From NCBI GenBank assembly GCA_963701295.1, contig OY969585.1, positions 2,496,001-2,560,000 on the forward strand: 64,000 nt of DNA, in the 5' to 3' direction. Below, one piece after another: positions 1,408 through 22,252 of this stretch. The position numbers were made by a program, and so were the translations under genes. This DNA comes from Ignavibacteriota bacterium. Its GTDB lineage: Bacteria > Bacteroidota > Ignavibacteria > UBA10030. Position 1 is the first letter of the stretch, and each line of letters begins with the position of its first letter. Under the pieces are notes generated by a model, which saw only the letters and a program-made list of their open reading frames with translations, was not told the DNA's origin and made no database searches.

Positions 1408-1717
1408 GTTGTTTTCTCCAAAATTGTTTTTTTGAATTATTTGATCTAGCAGGTATCCAAAGATATCATTTAGATTTTTTCCCCCCATTTTAAAAACTCC
1501 TCCTTTCTTAATCGTTGGTGACCAGTTTCTTCCTTTATGTACCTCCTTTCCTCTATATATGATGACCTTCACACAACTGGATAGATAATACCTTAACTGT
1601 ACGATAATTGTTTATTATATAGAAATCACTTGTTTTTTTGAGCTAATGTGTTTCTATCATACCTCAAACGAAATCCTTTACGGTGTCCTGCCATAGTATG
1701 GTGTTCCATTTCTATCT

Positions 1718-1975
1718 AAAATCAATCCAAACCTGCTAACAAAAAAGTTCAAGAAAGCAGTTAAAAAGTCAAAGCTCAAAGATCAGCGACTTCATTTTCA
1801 TTCACTTAGGCATACTTTTGCAAGCTGGTTGGCACGAAAGGGGACAAGCATTTACGAAATTCAAAAACTTCTCGGTCACTCCGACATTAAAACCACTCAG
1901 ATATACGCCCATCTTCTTCCCAATGAACTACACAATACGGTAGCGAAGTTAGAGGGAATGGTTCCATCCTATTAA
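1718..1975 (+). pseudogene. Tyrosine integrase C-terminal remnant
   Basis: Start-less frame KINPNLLTKKFKKAVKKSKLKDQRLHFHSLRHTFASWLARKGTSIYEIQKLLGHSDIKTTQIYAH...* contains the H-x-L-R-H, LLGH and catalytic Tyr motifs. No N-terminal half is upstream. Confidence 0.9.
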
Positions 1976-2010: not shown

Positions 2011-2039
2011 TTGTTTTCGCATTTATTGTTTTGTATTTT
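2011..2039 (+). promoter_or_regulatory. Sigma70-type promoter for the ncRNA/tRNA-Arg(UCG) leader
   Basis: TTGTTT-17 nt-TATTTT; mirrors the promoter at 7317-7345. Confidence 0.55.
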
Positions 2040-2047
2040 AGGTATGA

Positions 2048-2145
2048 CTCAATGAAGCAGCTTCCGATAGAATGAAAGAGAACTTATACCCGAAAGGTTG
2101 AAACGCCAGGTATCAAGAGACCGGAGGCTCGTTTCGCTCGGTGTT
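2048..2145 (+). ncRNA. Candidate structured RNA, copy A
   Basis: Homologous to 7215-7308 (-): identical 17-mer CCGAAAGGTTGAAACGC, GTTTCGCT end, GAAA-loop hairpin plus GAAACG/CGTTTC stem. Confidence 0.55.
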
Positions 2146-2253
2146 ACTTATTCGTGGCAGATTGAGTACTAATTTAAGCACTGTCAGAGTGAATTAAAAT
2201 CAAAGGTTCACTCAGGACGAAAAAAGAAACGCAGAATATAGATTGTTTTCAAT

Positions 2254-2327
2254 GCACCCGTAGCTCAACTGGATAGAGCATCAGCCTTCGGAGCTGAGGG
2301 TTGGGGGTTCGACTCCCTCCGGGTGTA
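2254..2327 (+). tRNA. tRNA-Arg (anticodon TCG)
   Basis: Cloverleaf: acceptor GCACCCG/CGGGTGT, anticodon arm TCAGC-CTTCGGA-GCTGA, T arm GGTTCGACTCC. Confidence 0.95.
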
Positions 2328-2341
2328 CATCGAAAGAAAAA

Positions 2342-5137: not shown

Positions 5138-6982
5138 GTGAAGCAAATATCAAATATACGGCGCATAGAACTGCTCGCTCCTGCTAAAGATTTAGAAAGC
5201 GGAAAGGCCGCTATTAACCATGGTGCCGACGCAGTGTACGTCGGTGCTCCTAAGTTTGGTGCTCGTGCTGCCGCGGGAAATTCATTGAATGATATTGCTA
5301 AACTCATTCAGTATGCTCATCGTTACTGGGTGAAAGTGTACGTTGCGCTTAATACGATTCTTTTTGATGATGAATTAGATGAGGCGCAAGCAATTGTCCA
5401 ATCCCTTTTTGAAGCCGGAGCTGATGCTTTGATTATTCAGGACATGGGATTACTGGAACTTGACTTGCCGCCTATTTCCCTTTTTGCCAGCACACAGACA
5501 CATAATTATGCGCTGGAGAAAATTCAATTCCTTGAGAAAGTTGGATTTCAACGCGTCATTCTTGCACGTGAATTGTCATTAAAACAATTGATCGAAATTC
5601 GTACAAACACTACAATTGATTTGGAATTCTTTATTCATGGAGCACTCTGTGTCAGTTTCAGCGGACAATGTTACCTGAGTCAAGCGACACAAGGGAGAAG
5701 TGCCAACCGTGGAGCGTGTGCCCAGCCATGCCGCTTGCCCTATACATTGTTGGACGGCAGTGGAAAGATTCTGGCAAAAGATAAATATCTTCTTTCTCTC
5801 AAAGATCTCAATCTCTCAGAGTATCTTAAAGATTTGATCAATGCAGGTGTTTCATCGTTCAAGATTGAAGGAAGATTAAAGGATATGAATTATATAAAAA
5901 ATGTCACAGCATTCTATCGACAACGAATTGATGAGATTTTAGAAACAGATTCGTCTCTTTCGAGTGCGTCATCAGGACGGACAATGCCGGCGTTTCGACC
6001 CGATCCGTCAAAGACGTTTAATCGCGGATTCACCGATTATTTTATCCGGCGCCGGAACAAAGATATTCTTTCGTCTCACACACCAAAATCGGTTGGAGCT
6101 TGTTTAGGAAAAGCCGGAAAGGTACGGCGAGATCACTTTCTTCTCGAGACTACAGAAACATTGCATAACGGTGATGGCATATGTTTTTTCGATCAACAAG
6201 AAGTACTCTGTGGCACTCATATTAACAAAGTAGAAAGAAATAAAATTTACCCTTCTGAATTTAAAGGAATTGAAGAAGAGACAATGATCTACCGAAACTA
6301 CGATCATCAGTTCGCTAAAATACTTCAAGAAAATAAAACGAAACGTCTTATCAATGTGAAAATGCAATTTGAAGAAACTGAAAGTGGTTTTATCCTCAGT
6401 ATTGAGGATGGCGATAATGTGAAGGTCTCCGTTGTTCAAAACAATAAAAAAACTCCTGCAAAGAACCTAGGTGCAGCAGAGGAGACGGTTCGGCGTCAGC
6501 TTATGAAATTAGGAGATTCGATCTTCGTTTCAGAAAAGCTTACTATTATCTGGAGCCAGCCATATTTCATACCGGTCAGTGTTTGCAACGAATTGCGGCG
6601 TCAAGCGATTGCTCAATTGGAAGAAAAACGAAAGAAGAGATTTCCACAGCATCATTCAAGCATCCTTCCGAACAGTGAACCATATTCGACGACACGCTTA
6701 GACTATTCTGCAAATGTTGCGAACAAGAAGTCAGAGTCGTTTTATCGTAAGCACGGCGTTGAGATCATCGACCCGGCATTTGAACTTCAGCATAGGAAGA
6801 GAGCGACTGTTATGACGATGAAGCATTGTCTGCGATTTCAATACGGTCTTTGTACCGGTCAAGGTACTGCCGACGCTGATACGCTTTTCCTTCAAGATGC
6901 TAAGAATACGTATCGATTGGAATTTGATTGTGAAGTATGTCAGATGAAAATCGTGTTTGAAAAGAATGCCAGAGAGAAATGA
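5138..6982 (+). CDS. U32 family protein with C-terminal extension (RlhA/YdcP-like RNA hydroxylation factor)
   Basis: ELLAPA, GADAVY, HGALCVSFSGQCYLS, NRGACAQPCR, KIEGR; C-terminal MTMKHCLRF...C. Confidence 0.85.
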   Translation: MKQISNIRRIELLAPAKDLESGKAAINHGADAVYVGAPKFGARAAAGNSLNDIAKLIQYAHRYWVKVYVALNTILFDDELDEAQAIVQSLFEAGADALIIQDMGLLELDLPPISLFASTQTHNYALEKIQFLEKVGFQRVILARELSLKQLIEIRTNTTIDLEFFIHGALCVSFSGQCYLSQATQGRSANRGACAQPCRLPYTLLDGSGKILAKDKYLLSLKDLNLSEYLKDLINAGVSSFKIEGRLKDMNYIKNVTAFYRQRIDEILETDSSLSSASSGRTMPAFRPDPSKTFNRGFTDYFIRRRNKDILSSHTPKSVGACLGKAGKVRRDHFLLETTETLHNGDGICFFDQQEVLCGTHINKVERNKIYPSEFKGIEEETMIYRNYDHQFAKILQENKTKRLINVKMQFEETESGFILSIEDGDNVKVSVVQNNKKTPAKNLGAAEETVRRQLMKLGDSIFVSEKLTIIWSQPYFIPVSVCNELRRQAIAQLEEKRKKRFPQHHSSILPNSEPYSTTRLDYSANVANKKSESFYRKHGVEIIDPAFELQHRKRATVMTMKHCLRFQYGLCTGQGTADADTLFLQDAKNTYRLEFDCEVCQMKIVFEKNAREK

Positions 6983-7032
6983 AGAAGACTTGGTATGCAC
7001 AGGAAAGCCTGTTGTGAACGGGCTTTTAGTTG

Positions 7033-7106
7033 TGCACCCGGAGGGAGTCGAACCCCCAACCTACAGCTCCGTAGGCTGCCGCTCTATCCAATTGAGCTAC
7101 GGGTGC
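7033..7106 (-). tRNA. tRNA-Arg (anticodon ACG)
   Basis: Reverse complement gives a cloverleaf with anticodon arm GCAGC-CTACGGA-GCTGT; 67/74 identical to the tRNA at 2254. Confidence 0.95.
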
Positions 7107-7179
7107 ATTCTAATATTCGTTAATTTCTACAACTGCCTTCTTTTTGAGTGAATGGAAAAAACCTCTTTTTCACTCCGAT

Positions 7180-7199
7180 GGTAACCAATTTAGTAACTA
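7180..7199. promoter_or_regulatory. Putative integrase arm-type sites (left end)
   Basis: GGTAACCAATTTAGTAACTA; GTAAC repeated at 12-bp spacing; matches 17278-17297. Confidence 0.6.
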
Positions 7200-7214
7200 G
7201 TGCTATAAACTAAA

Positions 7215-7308
7215 AACGTTAAGCGAAACAAGGCTCCCAGGCTCTAACACTGAGCGTTTCAACCTTTCGGTTCATTTACATTCGTTTTTGGAAGTGTGTT
7301 TCTTTAAT
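7215..7308 (-). ncRNA. Candidate structured RNA, copy B
   Basis: AACC-GAAA-GGTT hairpin, then GAAACG/TGTTTC enclosing CTCAG/CTGGG. Ends 116 nt before the tRNA, as copy A does. Confidence 0.55.
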
Positions 7309-7316
7309 GAACTAAT

Positions 7317-7345
7317 AATATACCAAATGATAAAAGTGAATTCAA
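7317..7345 (-). promoter_or_regulatory. Sigma70-type promoter for the ncRNA/tRNA-Arg(ACG) leader
   Basis: Minus strand TTGAAT-17 nt-TATATT. Confidence 0.7.
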
Positions 7346-7963
7346 GTTTTTTAATCATTGCAAGAGTAAATTTTACAATAACAAGCAATCTCATTTATAA
7401 AGAAGAACTAAGGGCTAGTGCAGGAAAGATAACATAATTCAATAGTCGTTATCCAAGCACCTTCTGTAATACCACGCGCGACCATTTACCACATTCCGGT
7501 ACTCGTTTGCCATTTTTTTCTGATCCATTTGTGATCCTTTGCGACCCTTTCGCCATCCCGTCACAACGCTCTTTAGGCATCTGACGAGATGGCAAGACGA
7601 TCATATAGGACAAAAGAATATCCAGAAAAATTCTGGCTAAACCTCTTTCCATTTCGGTTTAGATTGATTTCTCTCCTATATCGAAGTTGAAACTCCTGTA
7701 AGGTTTAAAAACGGGTCCCATATTTAATAGTTCGTCATTGTAAAGCGTCCTATGGCATGTCTTGGCGGTGGCGAAGATTTCCAATATCTCAAGGATGTTG
7801 GTTCAAACAGATCCAGTTTCGTTCGTGAAATTGTCGAACAAAATAATCTGCTCATACAGAAACTCAATTCGTTGATAGGAGAGGGTATGCCATTCTAAGT
7901 CCATCCCTACCAACGCTTATCAGTAAGAAAGCGTCGTGTGCGGTTTGTTAGTTGCAGTTGCCC

Positions 7964-8125
7964 ATTACCTCGGCAATACATATTTCTTTGTCTCTATAAA
8001 AACCGCCAGCTTTCAATTGATAGAAATACACGCCATGTGCGAAATATTTGCTTCGAAAACAACCGAGTGTCCACATGGATATTGATTCTCGTCTACAAAT
8101 GTCTTGGCTAATTTTCTAAATCCGA
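7964..8125 (-). pseudogene. Degenerate T9SS type A C-terminal sorting domain remnant
   Basis: Frameshifted reading GFRKLAKTFVDENQYPCGHSVVFEAN../GVYFYQLKAGG/FIETKKYVLPR* resembles the intact CTDs elsewhere in the window. Confidence 0.65.
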
Positions 8126-8189
8126 TAATTTAAATTGATTATCACTTTTTTATGCAACAACGGTGTATTTAAATAAAAGATAAAATAAC

Positions 8190-8238
8190 TTGACTTTTTA
8201 GAAAAGCCTTCATATTTTCGACCCATAAAATCGTTTCA
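8190..8238 (+). promoter_or_regulatory. Sigma70-type promoter with a possible LacI-type operator
   Basis: TTGACT-17 nt-TATTTT (8190-8218), followed by TAAAATCGTTTCA (8226-8238). Confidence 0.5.
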
Positions 8239-8726
8239 ATAATATATGAATCAGTTCAATAGGGGAAAGTTTTTTATAAGTGTTTGGTTTCACGTGTCAC
8301 TTCAGAGAGACATGTAAGAGGCAAAATTTTTCAGAGGAGGTTCTACTCTATCAAAATGTTTCTGTGTTTTTAAAGTACGCCAAGAATATACGTATTGACA
8401 AATAGTAAGACATGAGAAAGATCGATATCTGTTCGTGGAGGATAGTGCATGATAACAAGAATCGATTAGGCTTCAGAAAGCGGGGAGAAATTAAAATTTG
8501 ATATAACTTTTTTCGAGAGCTTTTATCATCTTTTATATATGTGCTTGATTGTTGATGAGATCACATGGCTATCATGAGGTGTATATCCTTCTGAAATTAT
8601 TTACGCAATTTTGAGTTCTCATAGGGGAGGATGATAGCTTGCTGTTTTTTTCTCAGTTAGGAAACGCTGAATAACTATCGCTTAGGGATGATAATAGTAT
8701 ACTTAAACTGAAAGGAGACATCGGCT

Positions 8727-11700
8727 ATGCAGCAACTGAAAAAGGTGGCAACGATTATTCTGTTGTTACTATCATCGGTCTCGCCGTTGTGGTCAGGCAC
8801 GACCGGAAAGGTTGCCGGGAAAGTAGAGGAGAAGGGAAATGGTGAACCTGTAATAGGCGCCACTATTATAATTGCAGGAACATCTCTGGGAGCGGCAACA
8901 GACATCGATGGTCATTTTACGATATTGAATGTTCCACCAGGGACATTCAATATTCAAGTCTCATTTGTCGGTTATAGGAAGGTTATTGTAAGCAATGTTC
9001 GAGTGTTCATTGATCAGACCGCACTCCTCGATATTTCTATGGAACCCGAAGCTATCGAAGTAAATCCAATGATAGTTGTCGGCGACCGATTGACTATCAA
9101 GAAGGATGTGGCAACCAGCGTTGCATCGGTTTCGGATAAAGACGTTTCATCTCTCCCAATTGACAATGTCGTGAGTGCTGTCGGTTTGCAGGCAGGTGTT
9201 CGTGGAGGTTGGTCTTCTAATCCAGCTACCGTTGTTGCTCCCAGTTATATTTCCGGCCCAAATGGTTATGTTCGTGGAAAAGTCAGCGTTCAAGGAGATT
9301 TGACTATCCGCGGTGGAGAAGGGGATAATATTCTTTTCATGGTAGATGGCGTCACGATGCGTGATCCGAGAAATAATGAGCCGACAACTAATTTGGCACT
9401 GAGTGCTGTAAATGAAATTTCTGTTGAACGAGGTGGATTCAATGCAGAGTACGGTCAGGTACGGTCGGGAATAATTAATGTCGTGACGAAAGAAGGGAAT
9501 AAACAAAGTTACTCAGGAAGCATACAAGGAAGAATAAGTCCTCCTGCACCTAAATATTGGAATGGTGACGGCATACCCGATGTGCATGATCCGAACTCAT
9601 ATTTCATGCGCCCTTTTTTCGATCCGAATGTATGCTGGACAGGAACAGCTCATCCTGTAGATCCGACGAAGTGGGATAAATATACACTTACCAAATATCC
9701 CGTATTCTCTGGTTGGAATGCGATTTCACAACAACTTTGTTCGGATAATAATCCGAATAATAACCTGACCCCTCTAGGTTGTCAACAGGTTTTTGAATAT
9801 GAAACGCGAAAGAATTTGCCAAATAATCAGCCGGATTACGATATTGATGGCGGTTTTGGCGGACCAGTTCCATTTGTTAGTGAAGCGCTTGGAAACTTAC
9901 GATTCTTTACTTCTTTTCGAACAACGCGCACCATGCTTCTATTCCCGCTTTCACGACCTGATTATAGTGATTACAACGGGACTTTGCAATTCATTACAGA
10001 TATTACTCCAACGATGAAATTGAGGCTTTCAGGTATGGTTGGAAAAGAATATACAATAAGAGCTAACTCGGACGGCAACGGTACCTACCAGTACCTCCAG
10101 AATCCAGCAGACATTGCTGCCCAAGCTCTTGGATGGACTTCAACTGAGAATTATATTCGTTTATTTTCAGATTATGCTTTCTGTACTAGTGACATTGGAA
10201 ATCAATCTGTTTCAGCTAAGTTGACACATAACTTTGGTTCTAATTCGTATTATGAAGTATCCATCGCACAGTTCAGGCGTGATTACAATACACAACCAAT
10301 TGCATTGCGAGACACATCTCAGAAGACTGAAATTCTGCCTGGCTTTTGGGAGGATAGCAATCCATTCGGTTATTGGCCCGATCAAAGTATCCCGCAAGGT
10401 ATTATAGTATACGGCGGGCAAAATTTAGCCAAGCCTCGCGATTTTACAGTTGTGAACTCAACGACGATAAAAGCTGATTATTGCAGTCAGGTGAATTTTC
10501 AGAACCTGGTGAAAGGGGGAATCGAGTTTGTATATTATGATCTGAATTTCGACTATGGACTCATCGATCAATCTTCCGCAGGCAAGGCATATTCCAATCG
10601 TGTCCAAATGCGCACTTTTCCGATACAAGCCGCCGCCTATCTTCAAGATAAGTTGGAAGAAAAAGGGTTCACTGTGAATCTGGGTTTACGATTGGATTAC
10701 AGTAATCCCAGAACTAATTGGTGGAATGTGGATCCGTACGACATAGCTTTTTTTGAGCCTACTGGTAATGATCTCAGCAACATATCACCAACAGAGCCAC
10801 CCAAAGAACAATGGGAATTGAGTCCACGCTTAGGGATTGCCCACCCAATTTCTGAAAACTCAAAATTGTTTTTTAATTATGGTCACTTTACAGAATTGCC
10901 CCAGTATGAAAGTATGTTTCGTGTTGAACGGAACACAGTGAATCAAGTGACAAGTTTTGGAGATCCTAATCTCACGCTCGCAAAAACGACATCTTACGAA
11001 TTGGGCTTCGACAACATTTTGTTCGAAGATTACTTACTTCAAATTGCAGCATTTTATAATGATGTTACTGATCAACAAGATTTTACTCAATACATCTCGT
11101 CAAGCGGCGGGTTTAATTACTATGCATCCACGTCGAATAATTATGAGGATATTCGAGGATTTGAAATCACGCTTCGAAAGACGAATGGACGGTGGTGGTC
11201 AGGGTTTGCCAATTATACTTATCAAGTGAGTAGCAGCGGGCATTTTGGACATGCACAGCAGTTTGACAATGCCCAGTTACAACAAGAATATAACGATGAA
11301 ACAATAAATCTATACCAGGACCGGCCAATTCCCGCACCGTATGCAAGACTCAATTTTAGTCTGTATACACCGGACGATTGGGGTCCTACTGTTCTTGGAA
11401 ATAAGATATTAGGTGGTTTTAGACTCAACACCGTTTTAGACTGGCAGGCAGGGAATTGGACAACCTTTAATCCGAATAACATCGCTTCCATCGCATACAA
11501 TGTTGAGACAGTAGATTTCTTTAATACAACATTGAGAATTGAGAAAACGGTATCCTTCGGAAAATTCAGTGCAAAATTATTCGTTGACATCAATAATTTG
11601 TTCAACACGCTGAGATTATCCAATACCAGTGACCTTGACTATATGTACTCGCTTCACTTACCAGCGAGTAAAGCGTATGCCAATATTCCTGGAGATGATA

Positions 11701-12023
11701 AGGTGGGAGATTACCGAACGCCAGGTGTGGATTGGCAGCCTGAAGTGTACCAATATGAAATCCAGAAAAATGACGGCAGCTATACAGTTGCTCCTGATGA
11801 TGAACGTGCGATTTTTTACGAAGGAAAGAGCGGGAAATACTGGAGGGTGAATAAAGATCAAAACACAGGAAATACCTCATGGGCGCAGGTTGATCAAGCG
11901 ACAATCAACCAGATTAATAAAGATAAAGCATATATTAATATGCCGAGTATTTCTACCTTTTGGTTCTTAAATCCACGTCAAATCTTTTTCGGTCTAAAGG
12001 TATCATTTGATTTAGGCCAATAA
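8727..12023 (+). CDS. TonB-dependent receptor
   Basis: Signal peptide, GTTGKVAGKV carboxypeptidase-regulatory-like domain, plug motifs IRGG and GGFNAEYG..SGIINVVTK, barrel motifs SPRLG and PRQIFFGLKVSF; SD AAGGAG. Confidence 0.93.
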   Translation: MQQLKKVATIILLLLSSVSPLWSGTTGKVAGKVEEKGNGEPVIGATIIIAGTSLGAATDIDGHFTILNVPPGTFNIQVSFVGYRKVIVSNVRVFIDQTALLDISMEPEAIEVNPMIVVGDRLTIKKDVATSVASVSDKDVSSLPIDNVVSAVGLQAGVRGGWSSNPATVVAPSYISGPNGYVRGKVSVQGDLTIRGGEGDNILFMVDGVTMRDPRNNEPTTNLALSAVNEISVERGGFNAEYGQVRSGIINVVTKEGNKQSYSGSIQGRISPPAPKYWNGDGIPDVHDPNSYFMRPFFDPNVCWTGTAHPVDPTKWDKYTLTKYPVFSGWNAISQQLCSDNNPNNNLTPLGCQQVFEYETRKNLPNNQPDYDIDGGFGGPVPFVSEALGNLRFFTSFRTTRTMLLFPLSRPDYSDYNGTLQFITDITPTMKLRLSGMVGKEYTIRANSDGNGTYQYLQNPADIAAQALGWTSTENYIRLFSDYAFCTSDIGNQSVSAKLTHNFGSNSYYEVSIAQFRRDYNTQPIALRDTSQKTEILPGFWEDSNPFGYWPDQSIPQGIIVYGGQNLAKPRDFTVVNSTTIKADYCSQVNFQNLVKGGIEFVYYDLNFDYGLIDQSSAGKAYSNRVQMRTFPIQAAAYLQDKLEEKGFTVNLGLRLDYSNPRTNWWNVDPYDIAFFEPTGNDLSNISPTEPPKEQWELSPRLGIAHPISENSKLFFNYGHFTELPQYESMFRVERNTVNQVTSFGDPNLTLAKTTSYELGFDNILFEDYLLQIAAFYNDVTDQQDFTQYISSSGGFNYYASTSNNYEDIRGFEITLRKTNGRWWSGFANYTYQVSSSGHFGHAQQFDNAQLQQEYNDETINLYQDRPIPAPYARLNFSLYTPDDWGPTVLGNKILGGFRLNTVLDWQAGNWTTFNPNNIASIAYNVETVDFFNTTLRIEKTVSFGKFSAKLFVDINNLFNTLRLSNTSDLDYMYSLHLPASKAYANIPGDDKVGDYRTPGVDWQPEVYQYEIQKNDGSYTVAPDDERAIFYEGKSGKYWRVNKDQNTGNTSWAQVDQATINQINKDKAYINMPSISTFWFLNPRQIFFGLKVSFDLGQ

Positions 12024-12042
12024 AAAACAATCAGAGATAGCC

Positions 12043-14504
12043 ATGAAAAAACAAATTATAAAAACGAGAAATAAATTTTCAATACTCATCGTAGGGCTAC
12101 TGATCATGTGCTCGGTTCATAATACCTTTGCTCAACGTATCAGATGGCTCGGCATCACACAATTGCAATCGCAGATTAATGAAATCGGTGCAGAATATGA
12201 ACTGGAGTTTTCGCAAGGAAGCATTTTCGATTTTTATGCATGGCCTGTCCAATATGGCATTGGCCAGACTACCTGCCGGATGAATGCACTCTGGATTGGA
12301 TCCAGGAATTTTGACGATCCTGTCGAGGGTGACATAAAGAGTGTCAAAGTAATCGGGTCGGGTCCTCGTAATGCTCTGGATCGTGTTAACGAGATTTTTG
12401 AACAAGATTTAAAATTGTTTGGAAGAACCAAGCATCCAATGATTACCGTCGATAATAAAAATGCCAGTGCGATAGATTCATATGACAAAGTAGATGTTCT
12501 GGATCCGAATCTTGAGGCCGACCGAATGGTTCAGGTAATATTCAACACTTCTATCGGGGTTTCAGTTACGAAAAAAGTAATGGCTTTTGATTCTCCATAC
12601 CATGATAGCTACTTCATTTACGATTATGTGTTCAAGAACACAGGTATTTATGATCGAGCTGGAGATGTCAAACAACAGACACTGACGAATGTCTATTTTT
12701 ATTGGATGTATCGAAATGCACTTGCCGGTGTGTCGTGCAACGGTGCGTCATCCACATGGGGAGCTTTTGGCTCTACGTGGGGAAATAGTACACTCAATCA
12801 CGCATTCGGCGAGAATCCACTTGCTCCTGGTTTTGATATGAGGGGATTCTACTCATATTACAGCCCAGTTCCTAATCGAACGAGTACTTATGATGCAGAC
12901 TGGGGATGTCCCAACATATCCGGAGATGGGATGCTGGGTTCTTCAATGTACACTGGTTGCGCAACACTCCACGCCGATAAAAGTGCAACAGATACCACGG
13001 ATGATCTCAATCAGCCGACGACCACATGGTATATCGGCTCCGATATCAATATCATGCAGCAAAACGTCAGTCAATACAATGAAAGTTTTATGCAGGATCG
13101 ATATAATTGCATGAGTGAAGGACATCCAACGCAGCAACATGATGACATGATTTTTTCTCAGGTACAGACTATTTCGCTATAACCTATTCAGATCCGAGAA
13201 GACAAACAGGGGGAGGTGTTAGTCAGGGTCAGGGATATGGTCCTTACACGATTCCTTTTGGTGATAGCATTCATATAGTATTTGCTGAAGGAGTAAATGG
13301 GATATCATGGGAAAAAGCCCGAGAGATCGGAGCCAAGTGGCTTCAGTGGAATAATTCTGGTGCAGGTCCCACTCTTATCATGCCAGATGGAAGTACCACA
13401 ACAGATTATAATGCGTATAAAAAAACATGGTGTTTCACAGGGAAAGATTCTATGATGCAAATGTTTCATCGTGCTCTGCGAAATTATAAATTAGGCTATA
13501 AAATTCCTCATCCACCTCCTCCACCGCAACAATTTACAGTTGCTTCCGGTGGTGACCGGATTTCGCTTTCATGGTCAAATAATGCTGAAAGCTCATCTCA
13601 CTTCAATGGCTATGTGATTTACAGATCTCGAGGTAACGTGTTAGATTGGACAAGCGTTTATGAAAAAATCTTTGAATGTGACAAATCAAATGTGGTACAC
13701 AATTTTGATGATTTGACCGCGCTTCGAGGATTTGATTATTATTATTACATCCAATCGAAGGATGACGGAACACAAAATGATATCGCACCTGGTGTTCCAC
13801 TCACAAGCAGTTTGTTCTGGACGGTGACGAGCGTGCCTGCAACCCTTCAACGGCCTGCTGTTACTGCACCCCCCAAAGAACCGGTTGTAGATACTGTCAA
13901 CTGGAAACCGACAGTAGCGAAGGGTGTCTGGGATTCAACTGTGATCGGAGGCTATTATTTTGCATATAATACGGTAACCTATAATAATTCGGAATATGTT
14001 TGCCTTCGGGATAGTACGCCAGGAATGATGCCGGGAAAACCGAAAGGTACATTCTATGCGAACTTTCCGGATACTTCTGTTTCTTGGAAACCAATAATTT
14101 CTAAGGGAGCATGGGTTTTCGGATCTGCTTACAGAAAATATAGTTATGTAACAGATAAAGGTGGGGTTTATGTTTGTGTGAATGATTTAGCTGCAGGTTC
14201 TATGTTGGAACAAGTGAGGGTTGTGCCTAATCCGTATGATATCCGCTCTCGCGTGTTTCAATTTGGTGCACAATCACAGTATGACCGCATAGCTTTTTAT
14301 GGACTTCCCCCGACCTGCAAATTGATGATTTTCACTGAACGGGGAGATAAAATTTGGGTGAAAGATCATACGAATGGTACAGGTGATGAACTCTGGGATT
14401 CACAAACGTCGTCGGGACAAATAATCGCAAGCGGCATTTATATTCTCTACGTCGAAGTTCCCGGAGGTGGTTCAGTAATACGTAAATTTGTGGTCATCAG
14501 GTGA
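12043..14504 (+). pseudogene. Large secreted protein (FN3-like, two CBM5/12-like repeats, CTD/FlgD-like tail) split by a 1-nt frameshift near 13151-13158
   Basis: ORF 12043-13182 continues in the -1 frame (SGTDYFAITYSDPRRQTGGGVSQGQGYGPYTIPFGDSIHIVFAEG...) straight into ORF 13380-14504, which ends VRVVPNPY...IASGIYILYV...KFVVIR. May be an assembly error. Confidence 0.75.
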
Positions 14505-14515
14505 GGAGAAGACCA

Positions 14516-15577
14516 ATGAAGAAAATAATAGGTAGTTTCATCGTTATGTTTCTTGTGTGCTGCCTGACCATAACAATCGGGAATGCACAAGAGAATCAAA
14601 AGCTTGCACAGACCGGATTTCAATTTTTGAGCGTTGTTTCGGACGCACGAGGCGCAGCGATGGGCGAAGCGATGACAAGCCTTCAGACGACAGCCTCAAG
14701 CTCGTTGTTCTTCAATCCAGCCGGGATGACTGAGATGAAGAATTTTGTGGATGCAACAGCAAGCGTTAACGAGTGGATTGCGAATATTAAGCACTACATG
14801 TTCAGCATAGCGATCAATCCGGCTGGAGGCAATCTCGGAACGTTTGGGTTGAGTGTACAAAGCGTGGATTATGGAGATTTCTACGGGACCGTTGTTGATC
14901 AGACATCGGATCTGGGGTACCGAGATACGGAGACATTCAAGTTGAATGCGATGGCGGTCGGTATTGGGTATGCTAAGCGACTGACAGATCAGTTTAGCAT
15001 TGGAGGGCAAGTAAGATTGATTCGGCAAGATTTGGGACCGAGCGTAATTCCAGTATATGGGCAGAAAGTTATGATCGACAGCACGGGAAAACAATATACG
15101 GTATATGATACGACCTCGACAACAGTGTCGAACAAGTTGATGCCGCTGGTATTCGATTTCGGGACGCAATTCAAAACTGGCATCAAGAGCTTGGTGTTCG
15201 GGATGTCGGTGAGGAATTTTTCAAAGCAAGTGGAATATGTTCAGGAAGGATTTCAGGCGCCGCTGGTATTTAACCTGGGAATCTCGATGAATTTGTTTGA
15301 TCTTCTGACAGATGTTCCGGAAAATCAATCGCTCTACATGAGTGTGGATGCGACTCATTACGTTGATCATCCTGAACAATTAAAAGTTGGGATCGAATAC
15401 AATTTCATGAACGTACTGAAATTGCGTGGTGGTTATGTGTCGAAGTCAGATTATGATGAGAGTTCGTTTTCCTACGGATTGGGATTGGCGATCGTGGGAT
15501 TTGAATTTGATTATGCGTATACGCCGTTTGGAGTGTTCAACAAGGTTCAGCGGATGACCGCACGATTTTCATATTGA
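14516..15577 (+). CDS. PorV/PorQ-family outer-membrane beta-barrel
   Basis: KLAQTGFQFLSVVSDARGAAMGEA, FFNPAG, LRGGY, FDYAY motifs; C-terminal aromatic residue. Confidence 0.85.
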   Translation: MKKIIGSFIVMFLVCCLTITIGNAQENQKLAQTGFQFLSVVSDARGAAMGEAMTSLQTTASSSLFFNPAGMTEMKNFVDATASVNEWIANIKHYMFSIAINPAGGNLGTFGLSVQSVDYGDFYGTVVDQTSDLGYRDTETFKLNAMAVGIGYAKRLTDQFSIGGQVRLIRQDLGPSVIPVYGQKVMIDSTGKQYTVYDTTSTTVSNKLMPLVFDFGTQFKTGIKSLVFGMSVRNFSKQVEYVQEGFQAPLVFNLGISMNLFDLLTDVPENQSLYMSVDATHYVDHPEQLKVGIEYNFMNVLKLRGGYVSKSDYDESSFSYGLGLAIVGFEFDYAYTPFGVFNKVQRMTARFSY

Positions 15578-15597
15578 GATGAAGAAGGAGAAAGAGC

Positions 15598-16839
15598 ATG
15601 AAATTTAATAAATATGAAATAATTGTATCCTTGATGATCATCGCAATACTGGTTATCATTCCAGGGTGTGAGTTTAATGTCACACCGTCCCAGTGGGATC
15701 AAAGCTCCCATCAAGGGGTGATCGACAGTATCATGCAAATTGATCCTGCTCTCGAGGCAAAAGCAGGAGTTAATACAATTACGATAACTGGAAAAAATTT
15801 TGCGTCGCTGCCTGATTCAAATATCGTTTATGTTTCAAAGATGGATGGAGATAAAAGCACGGTGACTGCAGATATATTCTTTACATCTTCATCTTCCATC
15901 ACCATCTATCGTCCAAACATTGTTTCAGATTCCTGCAGGTTTGTCATAGTTTCTCCGAAATCTCTCGTTGTGGCACAATCGGGATTGTACAAAATCGATC
16001 CCGTTTTGGTGAAATATGGAGCATTCCTGGATAACAGGCCATTGGGTGTCGTTGCCGGAGATAAAGATGAAAATATTTACGTTGTTTATTCATCAGAAAA
16101 AACAATATATAAAGTTGCCTCCAATGGGCAAAAAACGCTATTAAAAACGCTGGCAATGTATCAACCGTATGGTGGTAAAATCGGGCCTGATGGAAAACTT
16201 TATTTGATGGAAAATAATAAGTCATCTCTTGATGTGATAGATGTTCAGGCAGATTCATCGTCACAATTTAATATTGGATCCAATGTTAAGTGCGGCGACT
16301 TCGATTCGCAAGGCAATCTTTTCGTTGCAGGTATTGGGAGCGATTTGGTAACAGTTGCTCCGGATCATACGGCTAAGCGCTCAGGTAATTTCCAACCTGA
16401 TGTGATTCTGGATGTTCGTGTATACAGTGATTACGTTTATGTTGTTGATAGCACGAAAAATCCCACAGCCACTAAACCTTCAAAATCTATCCAGCGTTGT
16501 AAAATCGATTATACGAATCATACGGTAGGAAGTCCGGAACTGGTGATCGATTGGACTACAACTGGGCAGTACGCATCTTGTTTGATAACAGGAATTACAT
16601 TTTCTTCAGATGGAAAAATGTATGTCGCGACTAATTCACCGGATCCGATTCTCATTGTTGATCTGAATACAAAAAACGTAAGTACTCTTTATAAAGATAT
16701 TTTGCCATCCCTATGCAAACAATTTTTTTGGGGGAATGGCACCTATCTCTATATGATAACGGGCAACACATCAAACCCGGCATTAGATTGGACACTGTAC
16801 CGAGTCGATACGGGAATCAACGGTACTCCATTCTATTAA
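15598..16839 (+). CDS. Lipoprotein with IPT/TIG-like and beta-propeller domains
   Basis: Lipobox IPGC, ITITGKNF, repeated D..GNLFV / DGKMYV blades. Confidence 0.7.
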   Translation: MKFNKYEIIVSLMIIAILVIIPGCEFNVTPSQWDQSSHQGVIDSIMQIDPALEAKAGVNTITITGKNFASLPDSNIVYVSKMDGDKSTVTADIFFTSSSSITIYRPNIVSDSCRFVIVSPKSLVVAQSGLYKIDPVLVKYGAFLDNRPLGVVAGDKDENIYVVYSSEKTIYKVASNGQKTLLKTLAMYQPYGGKIGPDGKLYLMENNKSSLDVIDVQADSSSQFNIGSNVKCGDFDSQGNLFVAGIGSDLVTVAPDHTAKRSGNFQPDVILDVRVYSDYVYVVDSTKNPTATKPSKSIQRCKIDYTNHTVGSPELVIDWTTTGQYASCLITGITFSSDGKMYVATNSPDPILIVDLNTKNVSTLYKDILPSLCKQFFWGNGTYLYMITGNTSNPALDWTLYRVDTGINGTPFY

Positions 16840-16911
16840 GAAAAAAAAGAAAATATAGTCGATCTTTCTTTTTGAAGACCGACTTTATTTCATGCGACTT
16901 CTTACTGAACA

Positions 16912-17250
16912 TCACGAGTGTCTATAAGAGGCATCGAAATGCTCAGGTGTATAATTTGCAAGCAAAAAGTTGCCAATATATTTAATGAAATTCCGAAGAG
17001 ATGCCCTGTAGATTGCTACGGTTCCTTGAGAGAAGCTTCCCTCTGCATACGAAAGGAAATCGATAAGAAATTCAGATAAAAGCTTTCGCTTTGTCTTCTG
17101 CTTTCGCTCATAATCTTCCATTTTGACAGACTGAAGAAATCGAAGTGCGGCGAATTTGTATGTGCAATAATGTAGAGACCTTTTGCTTTTTCCTCGTTTG
17201 TTATAAAACCAGATGTAATGGACACCATCGGCATGCCTGGATAGAAATAT
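16912..17250 (-). pseudogene. Tyrosine integrase N-terminal remnant
   Basis: After SD GAGG the frame starts at ATA (presumed mutated ATG): IFLSRHADGVHYIWFYNKRGKSKR...ALRFLQS...LLSEFLIDFLSYAEGSFSQGTVAIYRASLRNFIKYIG. Resembles arm-binding plus core-binding domains; truncated. Confidence 0.7.
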
Positions 17251-17277
17251 CGGAAACCTCGCTTTCTAAAGGCGAAA

Positions 17278-17297
17278 GGTAACCAACAAGGTAACTA
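17278..17297. promoter_or_regulatory. Putative integrase arm-type sites (right end)
   Basis: GGTAACCAACAAGGTAACTA; same 12-bp spacing as 7180-7199. Confidence 0.6.
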
Positions 17298-17342
17298 CTG
17301 AGGAAGAAAATACAGAAATCAGAATATATTTACGTTCGACTC

Positions 17343-17398
17343 ACAGCTTAGAAGCCAGCCGCTTTATCCAATTGAGCTATGGGTGCATTCTAATATTC
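17343..17398 (-). repeat. att site: displaced 5' fragment of tRNA-Arg(ACG) plus 12 nt of upstream flank
   Basis: GCCGCTTTATCCAATTGAGCTATGGGTGCATTCTAATATTC vs 7078-7118; ACAGCT is also aligned (17343 vs 7063). Confidence 0.9.
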
Positions 17399-17678
17399 AA
17401 TGTCATTGAGTCTTGTCAGATAAGGGCGGGATTCTGAAAATTGCATCTCCTAGTATAAAACATTCGCAGGCAATTTTCGAACTACGAGTGCAGGGAAATT
17501 TATATTAGTATAACGATAAATCTCTTTTTTTGCAATTGAAAGTTGGAAAACAATTCTTGTTCTGGCTTTGTACGATATTTTTAAAAATGTAAAAAAAGGT
17601 GAGCTTGAAAGTTCATTCTTTTCTGATTTCTTCTTATCATGATACAGCAAATATAAAACAATTGGGAACATATCCACA

Positions 17679-20588
17679 ATGAAAAAAAATCTTATCCATC
17701 GCGTTATTGGCGTAATCGTCCTATTCATTTCTGCCGTTCAGTTCATCAAAACTGCACAGGTTTCTGTCCCATTTTGGGATCCGGGCGAACTCTCTGCTGC
17801 TGCCTACTTGATGCAGGTGCCGCATCCGCCCGGCGGGCCTCTCTTTTCGATCGTGGGCAGAATATTCTACATGCTACCCATCCCTGGCGATCTTGGTTTT
17901 AGGATGAATCTCATGTCGTCTGTCGCGAGCGTCTTTACAGTTCTTTTTTTATATCTCATCGCAGTCAAAGTCATTGAACACTATAAAGGAAAACAATCCG
18001 GAAATTCGTTAGAAACATTAGGGACGTACCTCGCTGCCGCCATTGGAGCTTTAACGTTATCGTTCAGCGATACGTTTTGGTTTAATGCCGGTGAATCTAA
18101 TTATTTTGCAGTAAGCATGTTGCTCTATTCTTCTATTGTATGGTTGATGATGGTGTGGAATGAAAAAGCCGACGAACCGGGAAGTGAACGGTATCTTTTG
18201 ATGATTGCATACATAGCCGGTTTATCAGCCGGACTTCATCTGATGAGTGTTCTGACGATAATCATAGTAGGGATTATTGTGGTTCTTCGGAAGTATGTCA
18301 CTAACAATGAAGAATACTTACAATCATCATATGTCTTTCTGGGGCATATGGTTTTGTTGTTCATTGTTGCGGCTATTCTTTGGAGCGGAGAAACTGCTAC
18401 ACAACCGCCCACACAAGAGATGACCAGTGCATTCGACAAGAAATTCATCATTGCAATGGTGATAGCGAGTCTTGGAGTTCTGGTCGTCTTTAGAAAAAAA
18501 GTTCTTCGACGAAACTCCATTTATCTCGCTCTCCTTGTTGGAGGTATTGCTTTCGTTGTGATCTTTTCCGGCATTATCAGATATTTTCCTAAGTTGTTGC
18601 TCTATATTGCGGGAGATCATCTTGAAGGAGGTCTTCTCGTCCTTGTGGGAGTAATGGCAGCAGAAGGATTGGGAGTTTATTATGCCATGAAGCAAAAGCG
18701 AATGATCCTTGCCCTCTCTCTTATAGCGGCACTTATTGCGGTACTCGGTTTTACGACATACACAATGATTGTTATCCGTGCGAACGCAAACTTGCCAATG
18801 AATGAAAATCATCCGAAGTCGTTCGCACAACTTATTACGTACTTGAATCGAGAGCAGTACGGCGATTTTCCCATGTTTCAACGCCGCTGGTCGTCAGAGC
18901 CGGAAAAAGTGGGCATCTATACAAAATACAGCAGTGATCTCGATTTCTTCTTACGCTATCAAATGGACCATATGTTTCAACGTTATGTTGGATGGAATTT
19001 TATCGGGAGAATCTCACATGATCAAGATGCAGGAGTGAATTGGAAAGGATTTTTCGGTATTCCATTTTTCTTGGGCCTTTTTGGTCTGTACACGCACTTC
19101 CGAAAAGATTGGAAAATGGCATCTGTCTTTCTCTTCACATTTATTTTAATGGGATACTTAATTACCTACTATCAAAACCAGCAGGAGCCGCAGCCGAGAG
19201 ATCGTGAATATTTTTATTGCGGAGCATATTTCGTTTTTGCACTTTGGATTGCGCTTGGTATCAAAGGGTTGCTTAATCTTGTCCAGGAAAAGTTGACATC
19301 GCCATCGGCAGTGAAACCTGCATTTATTGGAGTGCTCGTGCTCAGCACGCTCTTTGTTCCTGCAAGAATGCTGCAACTTAATTATTTTACGCATGATCGT
19401 TCGAAGAATTGGGTGCCTTGGGATTTTGCATACAACATGTTACAGACATGCGAACAGGATGCAATTCTTTTCACTCAGGGTGATAATGATACATTCCCTT
19501 TGTGGTACATGCAGGATGTAGAAGGTGTCCGGCGGGATGTGAGGATTGTGAACTTGAGCTTGGTGAATACATCATGGTACATCCTCCAGATGAAGAATAC
19601 ACCAGCGTACGCAGAGGCAAAAGCAGTGCCGATGAATATGCCTGATTCATACATTAAAGATATTCAACCGATCGCTTGGGAACCGAGAAACGTCGAGTTA
19701 CCCATTTCAAAAGAAACGATCCAACACTTTCAAGAAGAGAAGGGAGTTGTCCTTGATTCATCTATTGTCAATAACGGAAAAATTACATTCCTGCTTCCTA
19801 ATACATTGCAGTTTGGCAAAACAAAAGCGCTCCGTGTCCAAGATATTGCTGTGTTCGATATCATTATGGCTAATGAATGGAAGCGGCCCATTTATTTTGC
19901 CTCTACTTGTTCACCGGACGCAAAGATTGGATTGGAAGACTATATGTGGTTCAAAGGATTGAATTGGAAGCTTGAACCAATGAAGGCCTCAGAGATAAAT
20001 TATGGATTAGATCCTATGAAGCTCGAAGCAAATCTTATGAACGAGCCCTCAGATTATTCCAAAACTCCAAAATATGGATATATATTCCGTGAATTGGCGA
20101 ATCCAAAAGTATTTTTTGATGAAAATACAATTCGCATTATTTCCAATTACCGGGCAGCATTTCGTGGACTTGCCGCATATTACATAAACGTTGAAAAAAA
20201 TCCGCAGAAGAGTATAAAGGTGTTGGACAGAATGGAATCGCTTATGCCGCATACAAAAATTCCATATGGATGGCAGAGTGCATGGCAAATGGCGAATTTC
20301 TATCATTCTCTAGGGCGTATGGATCGTGTGAAGGAAATGGCAACAGAGATTGAACCGGCTTGTCTCAGTCTTATTGAGAAAGGCGACGTGGAGATGAAAG
20401 ACTATTACAATCCGTACCGCGCACTTCTTGATCTTTATGAGATGACAAAAGAACAGGACAAGTCACTCAACATTCTCCGGAAATTAGCGGTGCTCTTTCC
20501 AAAGGATCCAAGCATCAACCAGAGGATTCAAGTGTTAGAGCAAATGAGTAAACTCTCTGCTGCACCCGTACCTGAAAAAGGAAAGTAA
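17679..20588 (+). CDS. DUF2723 (TMEM260-like) multi-pass membrane glycosyltransferase-like protein
   Basis: FWDPGEL, VPHPPG, YLNREQYG, QPRDREY, FTQGDNDTFPLWYMQDVEGVRRDVRIVNLSL. Confidence 0.88.
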   Translation: MKKNLIHRVIGVIVLFISAVQFIKTAQVSVPFWDPGELSAAAYLMQVPHPPGGPLFSIVGRIFYMLPIPGDLGFRMNLMSSVASVFTVLFLYLIAVKVIEHYKGKQSGNSLETLGTYLAAAIGALTLSFSDTFWFNAGESNYFAVSMLLYSSIVWLMMVWNEKADEPGSERYLLMIAYIAGLSAGLHLMSVLTIIIVGIIVVLRKYVTNNEEYLQSSYVFLGHMVLLFIVAAILWSGETATQPPTQEMTSAFDKKFIIAMVIASLGVLVVFRKKVLRRNSIYLALLVGGIAFVVIFSGIIRYFPKLLLYIAGDHLEGGLLVLVGVMAAEGLGVYYAMKQKRMILALSLIAALIAVLGFTTYTMIVIRANANLPMNENHPKSFAQLITYLNREQYGDFPMFQRRWSSEPEKVGIYTKYSSDLDFFLRYQMDHMFQRYVGWNFIGRISHDQDAGVNWKGFFGIPFFLGLFGLYTHFRKDWKMASVFLFTFILMGYLITYYQNQQEPQPRDREYFYCGAYFVFALWIALGIKGLLNLVQEKLTSPSAVKPAFIGVLVLSTLFVPARMLQLNYFTHDRSKNWVPWDFAYNMLQTCEQDAILFTQGDNDTFPLWYMQDVEGVRRDVRIVNLSLVNTSWYILQMKNTPAYAEAKAVPMNMPDSYIKDIQPIAWEPRNVELPISKETIQHFQEEKGVVLDSSIVNNGKITFLLPNTLQFGKTKALRVQDIAVFDIIMANEWKRPIYFASTCSPDAKIGLEDYMWFKGLNWKLEPMKASEINYGLDPMKLEANLMNEPSDYSKTPKYGYIFRELANPKVFFDENTIRIISNYRAAFRGLAAYYINVEKNPQKSIKVLDRMESLMPHTKIPYGWQSAWQMANFYHSLGRMDRVKEMATEIEPACLSLIEKGDVEMKDYYNPYRALLDLYEMTKEQDKSLNILRKLAVLFPKDPSINQRIQVLEQMSKLSAAPVPEKGK

Positions 20589-20608
20589 TTTCGTCACAAT
20601 TGAGCTCT

Positions 20609-21781
20609 ATGGCGCACGATGTCCATATAGTCGTTAATAAGCACACGCCGTATGCTGTGAAAGCGTTTGAGCGGATCGGAAAAGTAACTGCGCTCGATAC
20701 ACATGAAATTACGAAGGATACAGTCAAAGATGCCGACATCCTGATCGTTCGTTCCGAGACGAAAGTTGATCATACTTTGTTAGATGGAAGCCATGTGAAA
20801 TTTGTTGGAACGGTGACAATCGGAACCGATCATGTGGATGAAGAATATCTTGCAAAGAATGGAATTACCTTTGTCAGTGCTCCAGGTAGTAATTCACATG
20901 CGGTTGGTGAATATATCACAGCAGCATTATTGGAACTGGCATATACCAAGGGTTTCTTGCTTAACGAAAAAACCATCGGTATTGTAGGAGTCGGCAACGT
21001 TGGTAGCAAGGTTTGGCACAAAGCAGAAGCTTTGGGAATGCAGGTCCTTCTGAACGATCCACCTCTTCAGCGTGTGGGGAGAAGTTATCCATTGCATTCC
21101 TTGGAAGAGTTGATGGAGGCGGATATCATTACGCTCCATGTTCCGTTGAACCATGCAGGACCTGATGCGACATATCATCTTTTTGATGAAAATCGAATTC
21201 GCAAGATGAAACGAGGTGCCATTCTCATCAACACATCACGCGGCGGCGTTGTGGAAACAGAGGCCTTGAAACGTACATTGAGTGATGGTCATCTATCAAC
21301 TGCTGTGCTTGATGTATGGGAGAAAGAACCAAATATCAACACATCTCTCCTTGAACTCATTTCATTAGGAACACAACACATTGCAGGCCATTCGTTAGAT
21401 GGCAAGCTCAATGCGCTTCGGGCAAATTACGAAGCGGTCTGTCGTTTTCTATCAAAACCGATTGACCTGGAAATCAATGCATCTTTACTGTATCCTGTTA
21501 TTCGAGAAATTAAAATTGACACAATGCACGGTCAGATACTACACACACTTCGAGATATCGTGAAGCAGTGCTACGATATCAATGTAGATGACCGGCTTCT
21601 GCGTCAAATTATATCGTTTCCAGAAGAAGAACGTGGAAAGTATTTTTCTCTACTTCGCACAGAGTACCGCATTCGGAGAGAATTTCCCAATTCAACAGTG
21701 TCCTTGTCCAATGAAGCAGAGAATCTTGCTGATATGCTTCAACTTCTTGGTTTTAAAGTAACGAAAGAAATATTGTCATGA
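20609..21781 (+). CDS. pdxB: Erythronate-4-phosphate dehydrogenase
   Basis: [42 protein letters not shown]. Confidence 0.9.
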
Positions 21782-22248: not shown

Positions 22249-22252
22249 TACA

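Follow-up and report, generated by a model that had tools for sequence, protein, structure and literature searches.

A candidate antisense leader RNA with its own predicted promoter at the 5'-side tRNA junction of integrative elements in an Ignavibacteriota bacterium

Why should two different tRNA genes of one bacterium be preceded by the same long leader, and why should one copy of that leader follow the remains of an integrase gene? The question is raised by a stretch of 64,000 nucleotides (nt) of an Ignavibacteriota genome (assembly GCA_963701295.1, contig OY969585.1, positions 2,496,001 to 2,560,000 of the forward strand), here called the window, in which leader A (2011-2253, + strand) precedes tRNA-Arg(TCG) and leader B (7107-7345, - strand) precedes tRNA-Arg(ACG). 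A previous reading of the bare sequence (the sequence-only reading) had proposed that the two are ends of integrase islands that share a promoter and an element-encoded noncoding RNA, feed a tRNA-Arg in each case, and might regulate the integrase. The analysis described here leads to a more specific explanation, which is the best available and, on balance, a probable one: the leader would be the end, next to the tRNA, of small integrative elements wedged between a tRNA gene and the native promoter of that gene. Transcription of the tRNA is predicted to start from the promoter of the leader, and the leader transcript is likely to serve as an antisense RNA against the beginning of the integrase gene of the element.

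Several features reported for the two leaders have been confirmed. They share an identical 17-mer, CCGAAAGGTTGAAACGC, at 2090-2106 (+) and 7254-7270 (-), a hairpin with a GAAA tetraloop, and the word GTTTCGCT (2131-2138 in leader A, with the tRNA beginning at 2254; 7222-7229 in leader B, with the tRNA extending to 7106), which in both cases ends 116 nt before the tRNA. Each leader does precede a tRNA-Arg, and copy A does follow an integrase 3' end, the fragment matching Pfam family PF00589 and ending at 1975. However, the homology, which had been placed at 2048-2145 and 7215-7308 and thought to start after the promoter, runs in a pairwise alignment from the -35 box to the tRNA. Furthermore, the genome, which has 46 tRNA genes, five of them tRNA-Arg, holds three copies rather than two. 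The third stands before tRNA-Arg(TCT) (G000:C1:2205614-2205764; 74% identity, E 2.5e-13), and the leader is absent before the tRNA-Arg CCG and CCT genes of this genome.

The closest relative, genome G010, whose flanks are 90-91% identical to the window, provides an empty site for leader B. In G010, the sequences corresponding to 5152-7106 and 17479-22529 are contiguous, 7107-17478 is missing, and tRNA-Arg(ACG) has a native promoter, TTGCAA-17-TATACT, ~15 nt upstream. By this comparison, leader B is the tRNA-proximal end of a 10.4-kilobase (kb) insert, island B (Table 1), in line with the earlier view that the leader is element-borne, since the leader is missing at tRNA-Arg(ACG) of the island-free relative. 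An intact element stands before tRNA-Arg(TCT). It is 7.8 kb long and carries an exact 65-nt repeat of tRNA nt 1-65 at G000:C1:2198038 and 2205846. At its far end, a tRNA copy that lacks the last ~9 nt lies behind the native promoter, and the gene for a tyrosine integrase of 356 amino acids (aa) (PF00589, 3.1e-35) starts ~80-100 nt past this truncated copy. Its interior encodes a DnaB-like helicase, a Rep_O-like protein, and six open reading frames (ORFs) without a Pfam family, and its near end consists of the promoter and leader of this family (R1, after the covariance model introduced below) followed by the complete tRNA, whose first 65 nt are element-borne. Read towards the tRNA, the near end comprises a putative sigma70-type promoter, a core of ~112 nt, two repeats spaced by 11 nt, a hairpin, and the tRNA.

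Thus the direct repeat of a 5' tRNA portion, the adjoining tyrosine recombinase, and the empty site in a relative, all expected of an element on the 5' side of a tRNA gene, have been found. Because island B and the TCT element lie between the native promoter and the tRNA, the elements are read as inserting on the 5' side and bringing their own promoter, a mode of insertion that the sequence-only reading had missed; the same position, with the native promoter left 7.8-10.4 kb from the tRNA, is the reason why the element promoter is predicted to drive the tRNA. The genomes with an integrase at least 64% identical to that of the TCT element (G000, G002, G012, G019, G054) all carry R1. In G012 (three elements), G019, and G002, the distance from such an integrase to the leader downstream of it is 6-12 kb, and stop codons interrupt the G002 copy; in G012 and G019 the gene also lies beside the junction, and the tRNA 5' copies of the G012 elements measure 55 nt and 47 nt. 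The window itself retains only integrase remnants (1697-1975; 16930-17250), and the start codon of the island B integrase has decayed to ATA. Leader A is a relic of such an element: over 74 aa, the integrase fragment upstream of it shares 59% identity with the C-terminal end of the integrase that the intact TCT element encodes. Mobile-element genes (Rep_O, AAA_25, DnaB_C, an integrase fragment, RelB, transposases) lie upstream of many of the 25 leaders scanned, and G010 and G008 bear the scars of repeated insertions, in that the tRNA 5' end is present in tandem between remnants of the leader and tRNA-Arg(TCG).

Other debris of this type was also observed. A further integrase pseudogene, 64% identical and with 3 stops, lies at G000:C1:333711-334727; together with isolated copies of the tRNA-Arg 5' end elsewhere in the genome (G000:C1:2838139-2839323, 2884866, and 3172358), it suggests more decayed elements of this kind. 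A recurrent segment, ...attttcagaatcccgc...gaatattagaat, lies between scars of the tRNA 5' end at 17399-17477 (-), in L071 at 11400-11470 (-), and downstream of the leader in L044 and L041, and in G019 and G055 it belongs to an insert of ~170 nt that separates an R1 leader from a truncated tRNA-Arg(ACG). The segment probably marks the end of another element type with a shorter leader. In G010 and G008, tRNA-Arg(TCG) is immediately preceded by a segment of ~38 nt, ccgataaacaacatcgcggtttcgcttcgtgtgctgac (L071 11305-11345 (-), L010), which is similar to the 3' portion of the R1 core and may have arisen from it by deletion. A sequence similar to ccgataaacaacatcgcggtttcgcttcgtgtgctgac also precedes an identical tRNA in a metatranscriptome contig of run X19. 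The cargo of island B consists of a gene for a TonB-dependent-receptor-like protein of 1098 aa (8727-12023) followed by four ORFs of 358-413 aa without a Pfam family, the whole stretch being 8727-16839 (+).

How widely is the leader distributed? A blastn search across 41 genomes, the window's own included, detected it in 7. A covariance model, R1, built from 14 leaders, gave 26 matches in 12 of 86 genomes of the family: this genome and 6 of the 15 others of its genus, all 3 of a second genus, and two weak matches elsewhere. An intact tRNA lies downstream of 23 of the 26, and six isotypes are represented, namely tRNA-Arg with five anticodons (15 matches), tRNA-Thr(CGT) (3), tRNA-Pro(TGG) (2), and tRNA-Leu(TAA), tRNA-Val(CAC), and tRNA-Asp(GTC) (1 each); two matches are followed by broken pieces of tRNA-Arg and one by a contig end. 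The idea of a leader specific to tRNA-Arg, suggested by the two copies in the window, was consequently dropped. A pattern scan of one genome per species returned 8 loci, and every assembly concerned carries the label Ignavibacteriota or Bacteroidota/Bacteroidetes; the same kind of scan gave no matches in viral contigs. In metagenomes it gave 50 loci, of which 6 match model R1 and the remaining 44 are probably fortuitous, the pattern being rich in A+T. The accessible sample comprises 30 distinct leaders and 7 element pairs, all from one bacterial family. The sequence-only reading had recognized no known family, and this held: at the gathering threshold of Rfam 15, the whole window contains only tRNAs, and cmscan at E<=10 on 1980-2340 added only chance-level matches far below thresholds, with no match to a riboswitch or to the C4 family.

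The evidence that the first half of the leader is an RNA comes from 33 aligned leaders, 30 of them distinct. The core alignment was fitted to the model structure, which favours the helices tested; within it, five helices (P1, P2, P3, P0a, and P0b) are 91.6% paired and show changes on both sides in 17 of 29 pairs. That pair count was reached by 1 of 500 shuffles, and the percentage paired or the covariation score by none of the 500. Double changes affect 5/5 pairs of P1, 5/9 of P2, 2/3 of P3, 3/7 of P0a, and 2/5 of P0b, and RNAalifold returned P1, P2, and P3 from the same alignment. In P1 and P2 together there are 41 G-U cells versus 12 A-C cells, an excess that points to RNA on this strand. 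Taken together, these results argue that the first half of the leader is a covarying RNA in which P1 and P2 are strongly supported. An alternative helix, P0, between the 5' block and the loop region of P3 appears possible and is less well supported; the P0+P1 and P1+P2+P3 folds lie within ~3 kcal/mol of each other in 9 of the 29 leaders scored, including 5 of the 7 linked to an integrase. An H-type pseudoknot of P0 with P2 was judged unlikely by reasoning only, given a linker of 1 nt. P2 is followed by a conserved U-rich tract, UUUCUUAUU, and the two look like a leaky terminator, in the model, with an unusually large interior. Folding of single sequences was uninformative (z-scores of -1.07 for leader A and -0.26 for leader B).

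Covariation among homologues was thus found, but in helices other than those that had been drawn. The outer stem of the sequence-only reading, GAAACG/YGUUUC, is 77% paired in the 30 distinct homologues, a value reached by 417 of 500 shuffles, and the inner stem, said to differ between the copies and still to pair, is without covariation (308 of 500 shuffles). That secondary structure has therefore been rejected.

Upstream of the core, TTGACA- and TATAAT-like hexamers spaced by 16-18 nt were taken to define a sigma70-type promoter. The family consensus is cTTGCCTTC-17-tgTATATT, with hexamers conserved in the 14 aligned leaders. Of the two promoters with a 17-bp spacer proposed earlier, the one of copy B (TTGAAT-17-TATATT, 9/12 matches plus TG) was called by the promoter scan, and that of copy A (TTGTTT-17-TATTTT) fell below the scan threshold. 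Since the leader lies upstream of the tRNA and by-eye inspection, the only kind made, revealed no second conserved promoter between core and tRNA, co-transcription of leader and tRNA is likely. In G010 the structured core before tRNA-Arg(TCG) is gone while the R1 promoter is kept, which makes the core dispensable for supplying the tRNA.

The second half of the leader appears to be of a different nature. It contains two repeats 11 nt apart whose words vary between elements, and in 7 of 7 elements the same words recur on the element's own other arm; in island B, for example, they are TAGTTACT/TGGTTACC on the leader side and TAGTTACC/GGTTACC on the far arm (17277-17297). These repeats are best read as integrase arm-type sites that function at the DNA level. 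Accordingly, the proposal of an element-encoded noncoding RNA is supported for the first half of the leader, whereas the 116 nt next to the tRNA are better explained as DNA. The hairpin beyond the repeats, AGAGTGAA...TTCACTC in leader A, is apparently kept in many of the 14 aligned leaders, and one variant, AGATTGAA/TTCAATCT, preserves the pairing.

What, then, would an RNA at this end of the element do? The far end offers a candidate target. There, a hairpin, GCCUCAGAAAnnGrGGC, and then UUCCG-AUG lead into the integrase gene, and positions -11 to -1 of this gene are complementary in antiparallel sense to the P3 loop and 3' strand of the leader, CGGAAGCCUCG. This 11-nt duplex is fully paired in all 7 elements for which both ends are available: its 77 positions consist of 63 Watson-Crick pairs, 14 G-U pairs, and no A-C combination. 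In G012 elements, two substitutions on one side are matched on the other, one U-A pair having become C-G and one C-G pair U-A. The target stretch contains GAGG, a Shine-Dalgarno-like motif, and such motifs precede 417 of 1144 starts in this genome compared with 95 of 1144 control windows. The guess that the leader regulates the integrase thereby gains concrete support, because the loop complements the integrase start region in 7/7 elements. Hfq (PF17209) was not found in the host genome, which is 99.3% complete and in which the controls were positive, and the leader RNA accordingly does not qualify as an Hfq-dependent small RNA. A second complement, between leader AGUGUUUUGAG and integrase positions +10 to +20 (CUCAAAACAUU, codons 3-7), was observed in several G012 and G019 elements; it is absent from the G000 TCT element.

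These observations have led to the following model. The element promoter would transcribe leader and tRNA together, and RNase P would release the leader, whose core would fold as P1 and P2, the latter followed by the U-rich tract in the manner of a leaky terminator. Positions -11 to -1 of the integrase mRNA would then be paired with the P3 loop and 3' strand. Because the target includes the GAGG motif, such pairing would block translation of the integrase while the element is integrated, a state in which the integrase gene is located behind the native promoter of the tRNA. Once the element has been excised, it is the leader promoter that would point towards the integrase gene in the circle. 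At leader A, where the integrase is truncated and the seed is damaged, having lost one base, only the promoter role would therefore remain.

It should be noted that a number of results weigh against this model. P0 and P3 show 18 G-U versus 17 A-C cells, and since there is no excess, the case for a switch between two folds is weak. P2 encloses an interior of 27 nt and was not called by a terminator scan that allows loops of 3-8; furthermore, if P2 were an efficient terminator, the single-copy tRNAs would be starved. Complements of 11 nt to some part of the 112-nt core are common in the genome, with 537 sites versus ~177 expected, and for this reason the antisense case depends on where the match lies and on its conservation. 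For the whole leader, duplex energies are only moderately unusual in six elements (z of -1.6 to -4.6) and not in island B (0.0), and because the 7 elements are related, the conserved duplex may reflect perhaps 6-7 independent substitutions. In the 7.9-20 kb examined upstream of twelve other leaders there is neither an integrase nor a target motif, and yet these leaders keep P1 and P2, so a function independent of the integrase is likely. In addition, of four metatranscriptome contig sets (85% likeness), three cover only the tRNA and the fourth also 1984-2046 over the promoter, leaving the core uncovered; a search for sequencing runs found only runs that share 5-9% of sampled words. Finally, the circle poses a difficulty for the model, since pairing in cis would hold the integrase down there as well, just when it is required.

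The excised circle is the basis of another explanation, which is possible and which is compatible with the antisense model: the promoter would serve the integrase, transcribing leader, attachment site (attP), and integrase after excision, so that the core is an integrase 5' untranslated region (UTR) and transcription of the tRNA is a by-product. Joining the element ends would indeed put the integrase behind the leader promoter, because the integrase adjoins the far tRNA copy, ~80-100 nt past it and in the same orientation. There is a precedent in Pcirc of ICEclc, an outward promoter at one end of the element that faces the integrase gene after excision, according to the sections of PMC5812530 that deal with it. 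ICEclc differs in using the 3' end of tRNA-Gly and in not driving a tRNA, and those sections describe no antisense element (PMC5812530). However, no circular junction was observed in any data set examined, and the integrated integrase is already located downstream of a native tRNA promoter.

An extended form of the antisense model is rather unlikely. Here the leader would be bistable, such that the P2 terminator fold frees an antisense RNA of ~120 nt that displays its seed in a loop and silences the integrase, while the 5' block, by masking the seed and preventing P2, allows read-through to the single-copy tRNA. Stability of the element would thus be tied to tRNA supply, and the host would be left dependent once the far end has decayed.

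If the leader were purely attachment-site DNA, it would be the P arm of attP, bound by integrase, excisionase, or a bending protein; the inverted seed match would then represent protein sites, and transcription would matter only as the promoter of the tRNA. The arm-type repeats of the second half, common to both arms, are what this explanation expects, as is the inverted repeat that the seed and its complement make up on either side of the core, and the missing G-U excess in P0 and P3 also fits. However, P1 and P2 covary with strand-specific G-U pairs. Moreover, every one of the 14 seed-duplex positions that are not Watson-Crick is G-U rather than A-C, which is unlike drifting DNA half-sites, and protein sites should conserve sequence rather than complementarity. 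This explanation is thus improbable for the leader as a whole.

Equally improbable is a cis-acting leader that serves only the tRNA, as an attenuator or processing platform in which the P2/U-tract terminator competes with P0 to set tRNA output, with no role for the element. The conserved U-rich tract, the closeness in energy of the two folds, and the retention of P1 and P2 in orphan leaders without an integrase would all be accounted for. Nevertheless, in G010 the R1 promoter stands before tRNA-Arg(TCG) although the core has been lost, the leaders behind native tRNA promoters of these genomes measure ~15 nt, and there is no riboswitch match in Rfam. In addition, the core cannot sense one amino acid, because the same core precedes six isotypes. 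An ancestral host leader, kept through duplication of a tRNA-Arg gene, can be dismissed almost entirely: all three copies of this genome precede tRNA-Arg and twelve leaders have no nearby integrase, but the island-free closest relative has a native promoter in place of the leader at tRNA-Arg(ACG), six isotypes lie downstream, only 12/86 family genomes carry the leader, and a 65-nt tRNA repeat and an integrase mark the limits of the TCT element.

The antisense model has counterparts among known systems. The C4 RNAs of phages P1 and P7 and the CI RNA of P4 are small, element-encoded RNAs, cut by RNase P from a longer transcript, that pair with ribosome-binding regions or complementary sites of their own genes. 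The logic predicted here is similar, but the predicted target is an integrase rather than an antirepressor or immunity gene, and the RNA is the 5' leader of a real host tRNA. By analogy, and given that the Rfam search above found no match in sequence or structure to C4, the leader RNA may work like C4 and CI without being a member. RNA-OUT of IS10 is an antisense RNA with a hairpin-loop seed that covers the start region of its recombinase gene. The loop seed and the type of target are alike; however, RNA-OUT is encoded opposite its target and pairs perfectly in cis with RNA-IN, whereas here the partners are at opposite ends of the element and share 11-13 nt. In a narrow search of the literature by title and abstract, nothing of the kind was found for antisense control of integrase in genomic islands.

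With regard to insertion, integration at the 5'-distal side of tRNA genes is described as "considerably less frequent" than at the 3'-distal side in a passage of PMC6563490, which cites Zhao and Williams 2002. The elements described here are of this 5'-distal type ("reversed target orientation"), with the element upstream of the functional tRNA and a repeat that is the 5' part of the tRNA; because of this repeat, such an element must supply the upstream sequence. What sets them apart is a conserved promoter and a structured RNA of ~112 nt common to elements that target six isotypes. SXT/R391 elements insert at the 5' extremity of prfC, as noted in part of PMC5812530. They too thus use the 5' end of a host gene of an essential type, but the target encodes a protein and the element is a conjugative one of 100 kb, compared with 6-12 kb here. 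Hochhut and Waldor reportedly found, in 1999, that SXT supplies prfC with a new 5' end and promoter. SXT/R391 is not known to carry a structured leader RNA.

Table 1. Features of leaders A and B and of island B in the window
Feature	Position	Strand	Basis or remark
Integrase C-terminal fragment, 92 codons + stop	1697-1975	+	Pfam PF00589, 6.6e-21; precedes leader A
Leader A promoter (putative)	2011-2039	+	-35 TTGTTT 2011-2016, 17-nt spacer, TG-extended -10 TATTTT 2034-2039; aligned to family consensus
Leader A structured core	2047-2158	+	Model R1 match, 91.6 bits
Leader A 5' block	2054-2066	+	Part of core
Leader A P1 (GAAA hairpin)	~2088-2099	+	Helix covariation
Leader A P2	2101-2110 with 2137-2145, then U-rich tract to 2152	+	Helix covariation
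Leader A P3	2117-2119 with 2128-2130	+	Helix covariation
Leader A loop CCGGAGGCUCG	2121-2131	+	Degraded copy of integrase-complementary seed
Leader A direct repeat TTGAGTACT / TTTAAGCACT, 11-nt period	2162-2182	+	Read as integrase arm-type sites
Leader A hairpin	2186-2213	+	Alignment of 14 leaders
tRNA-Arg(TCG)	2254-2328	+	ARAGORN; sole gene with this anticodon in genome
tRNA-Arg(ACG)	7032-7106	-	ARAGORN; sole gene with this anticodon; functional junction (attR) of island B
Island B, 10.4 kb	7107-17478	-	Absent from G010; inserted between native promoter and tRNA-Arg(ACG)
Leader B hairpin	7146-7176	-	Sequence reading
Leader B arm-type repeats	7180-7199	-	Same words on island B far arm
Leader B structured core	7202-7309	-	Model R1 match, 88.4 bits
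Leader B promoter (putative), with TG	7317-7345	-	Called by promoter scan
Island B integrase remnant, ~107 codons	16930-17250	-	64% identity to residues 1-107 of TCT-element integrase
Island B far arm	17251-17297	-	Arm repeats 17277-17297, 5'-UTR hairpin, leader-B-loop complement CGAGGTTTCCG (17251-17261)
Decayed tRNA 5' copy, 56 nt (attL scar of island B)	17343-17398	-	88% identity to positions 3-58 of leader/tRNA query
Displaced native tRNA-Arg(ACG) promoter TTGCAA-17-TATACT and 14-nt remnant of tRNA 5' end (17478-17491)	17478-17535	-	Same promoter as in G010

Two neighbours of the leaders may be mentioned. A cytidine/adenosine deaminase gene (2396-2886, +; MafB19-deam and dCMP_cyt_deam_1 domains, TadA-like) follows tRNA-Arg(TCG), a neighbourhood kept in G008 and G055, and lies 4.7 kb from the gene for tRNA-Arg(ACG), the tRNA that TadA edits. 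A large gene with a CBM9 domain (1-1407, -) contains two long, near-identical internal repeats (about 1-700 versus 710-1400) and is not syntenic in G010, G001, and G009.

What is new in this system is the combination of a rare mode of integration, a conserved promoter, a structured RNA that is not on file in Rfam, and a specific link to the integrase through a loop that matches its ribosome-binding region. Integration on the 5' side, rare elsewhere, is practised here by a whole family of elements across six tRNA isotypes. If the link is confirmed, the system would show in compact form how the leader of a tRNA precursor can also regulate a recombinase, and should the bistable form also be true, the stability of the element would be linked to the tRNA supply of the cell, with essential arginine tRNAs left on a foreign promoter. 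For annotation, there is a warning that a conserved "tRNA leader" can be in part the arm of an attachment site, acting as DNA, and in part an RNA. For the host, three of its five arginine tRNA genes, each the sole one for its anticodon, appear to be transcribed from promoters of mobile elements, which would make it dependent on foreign DNA for its arginine tRNAs to an unusual degree.

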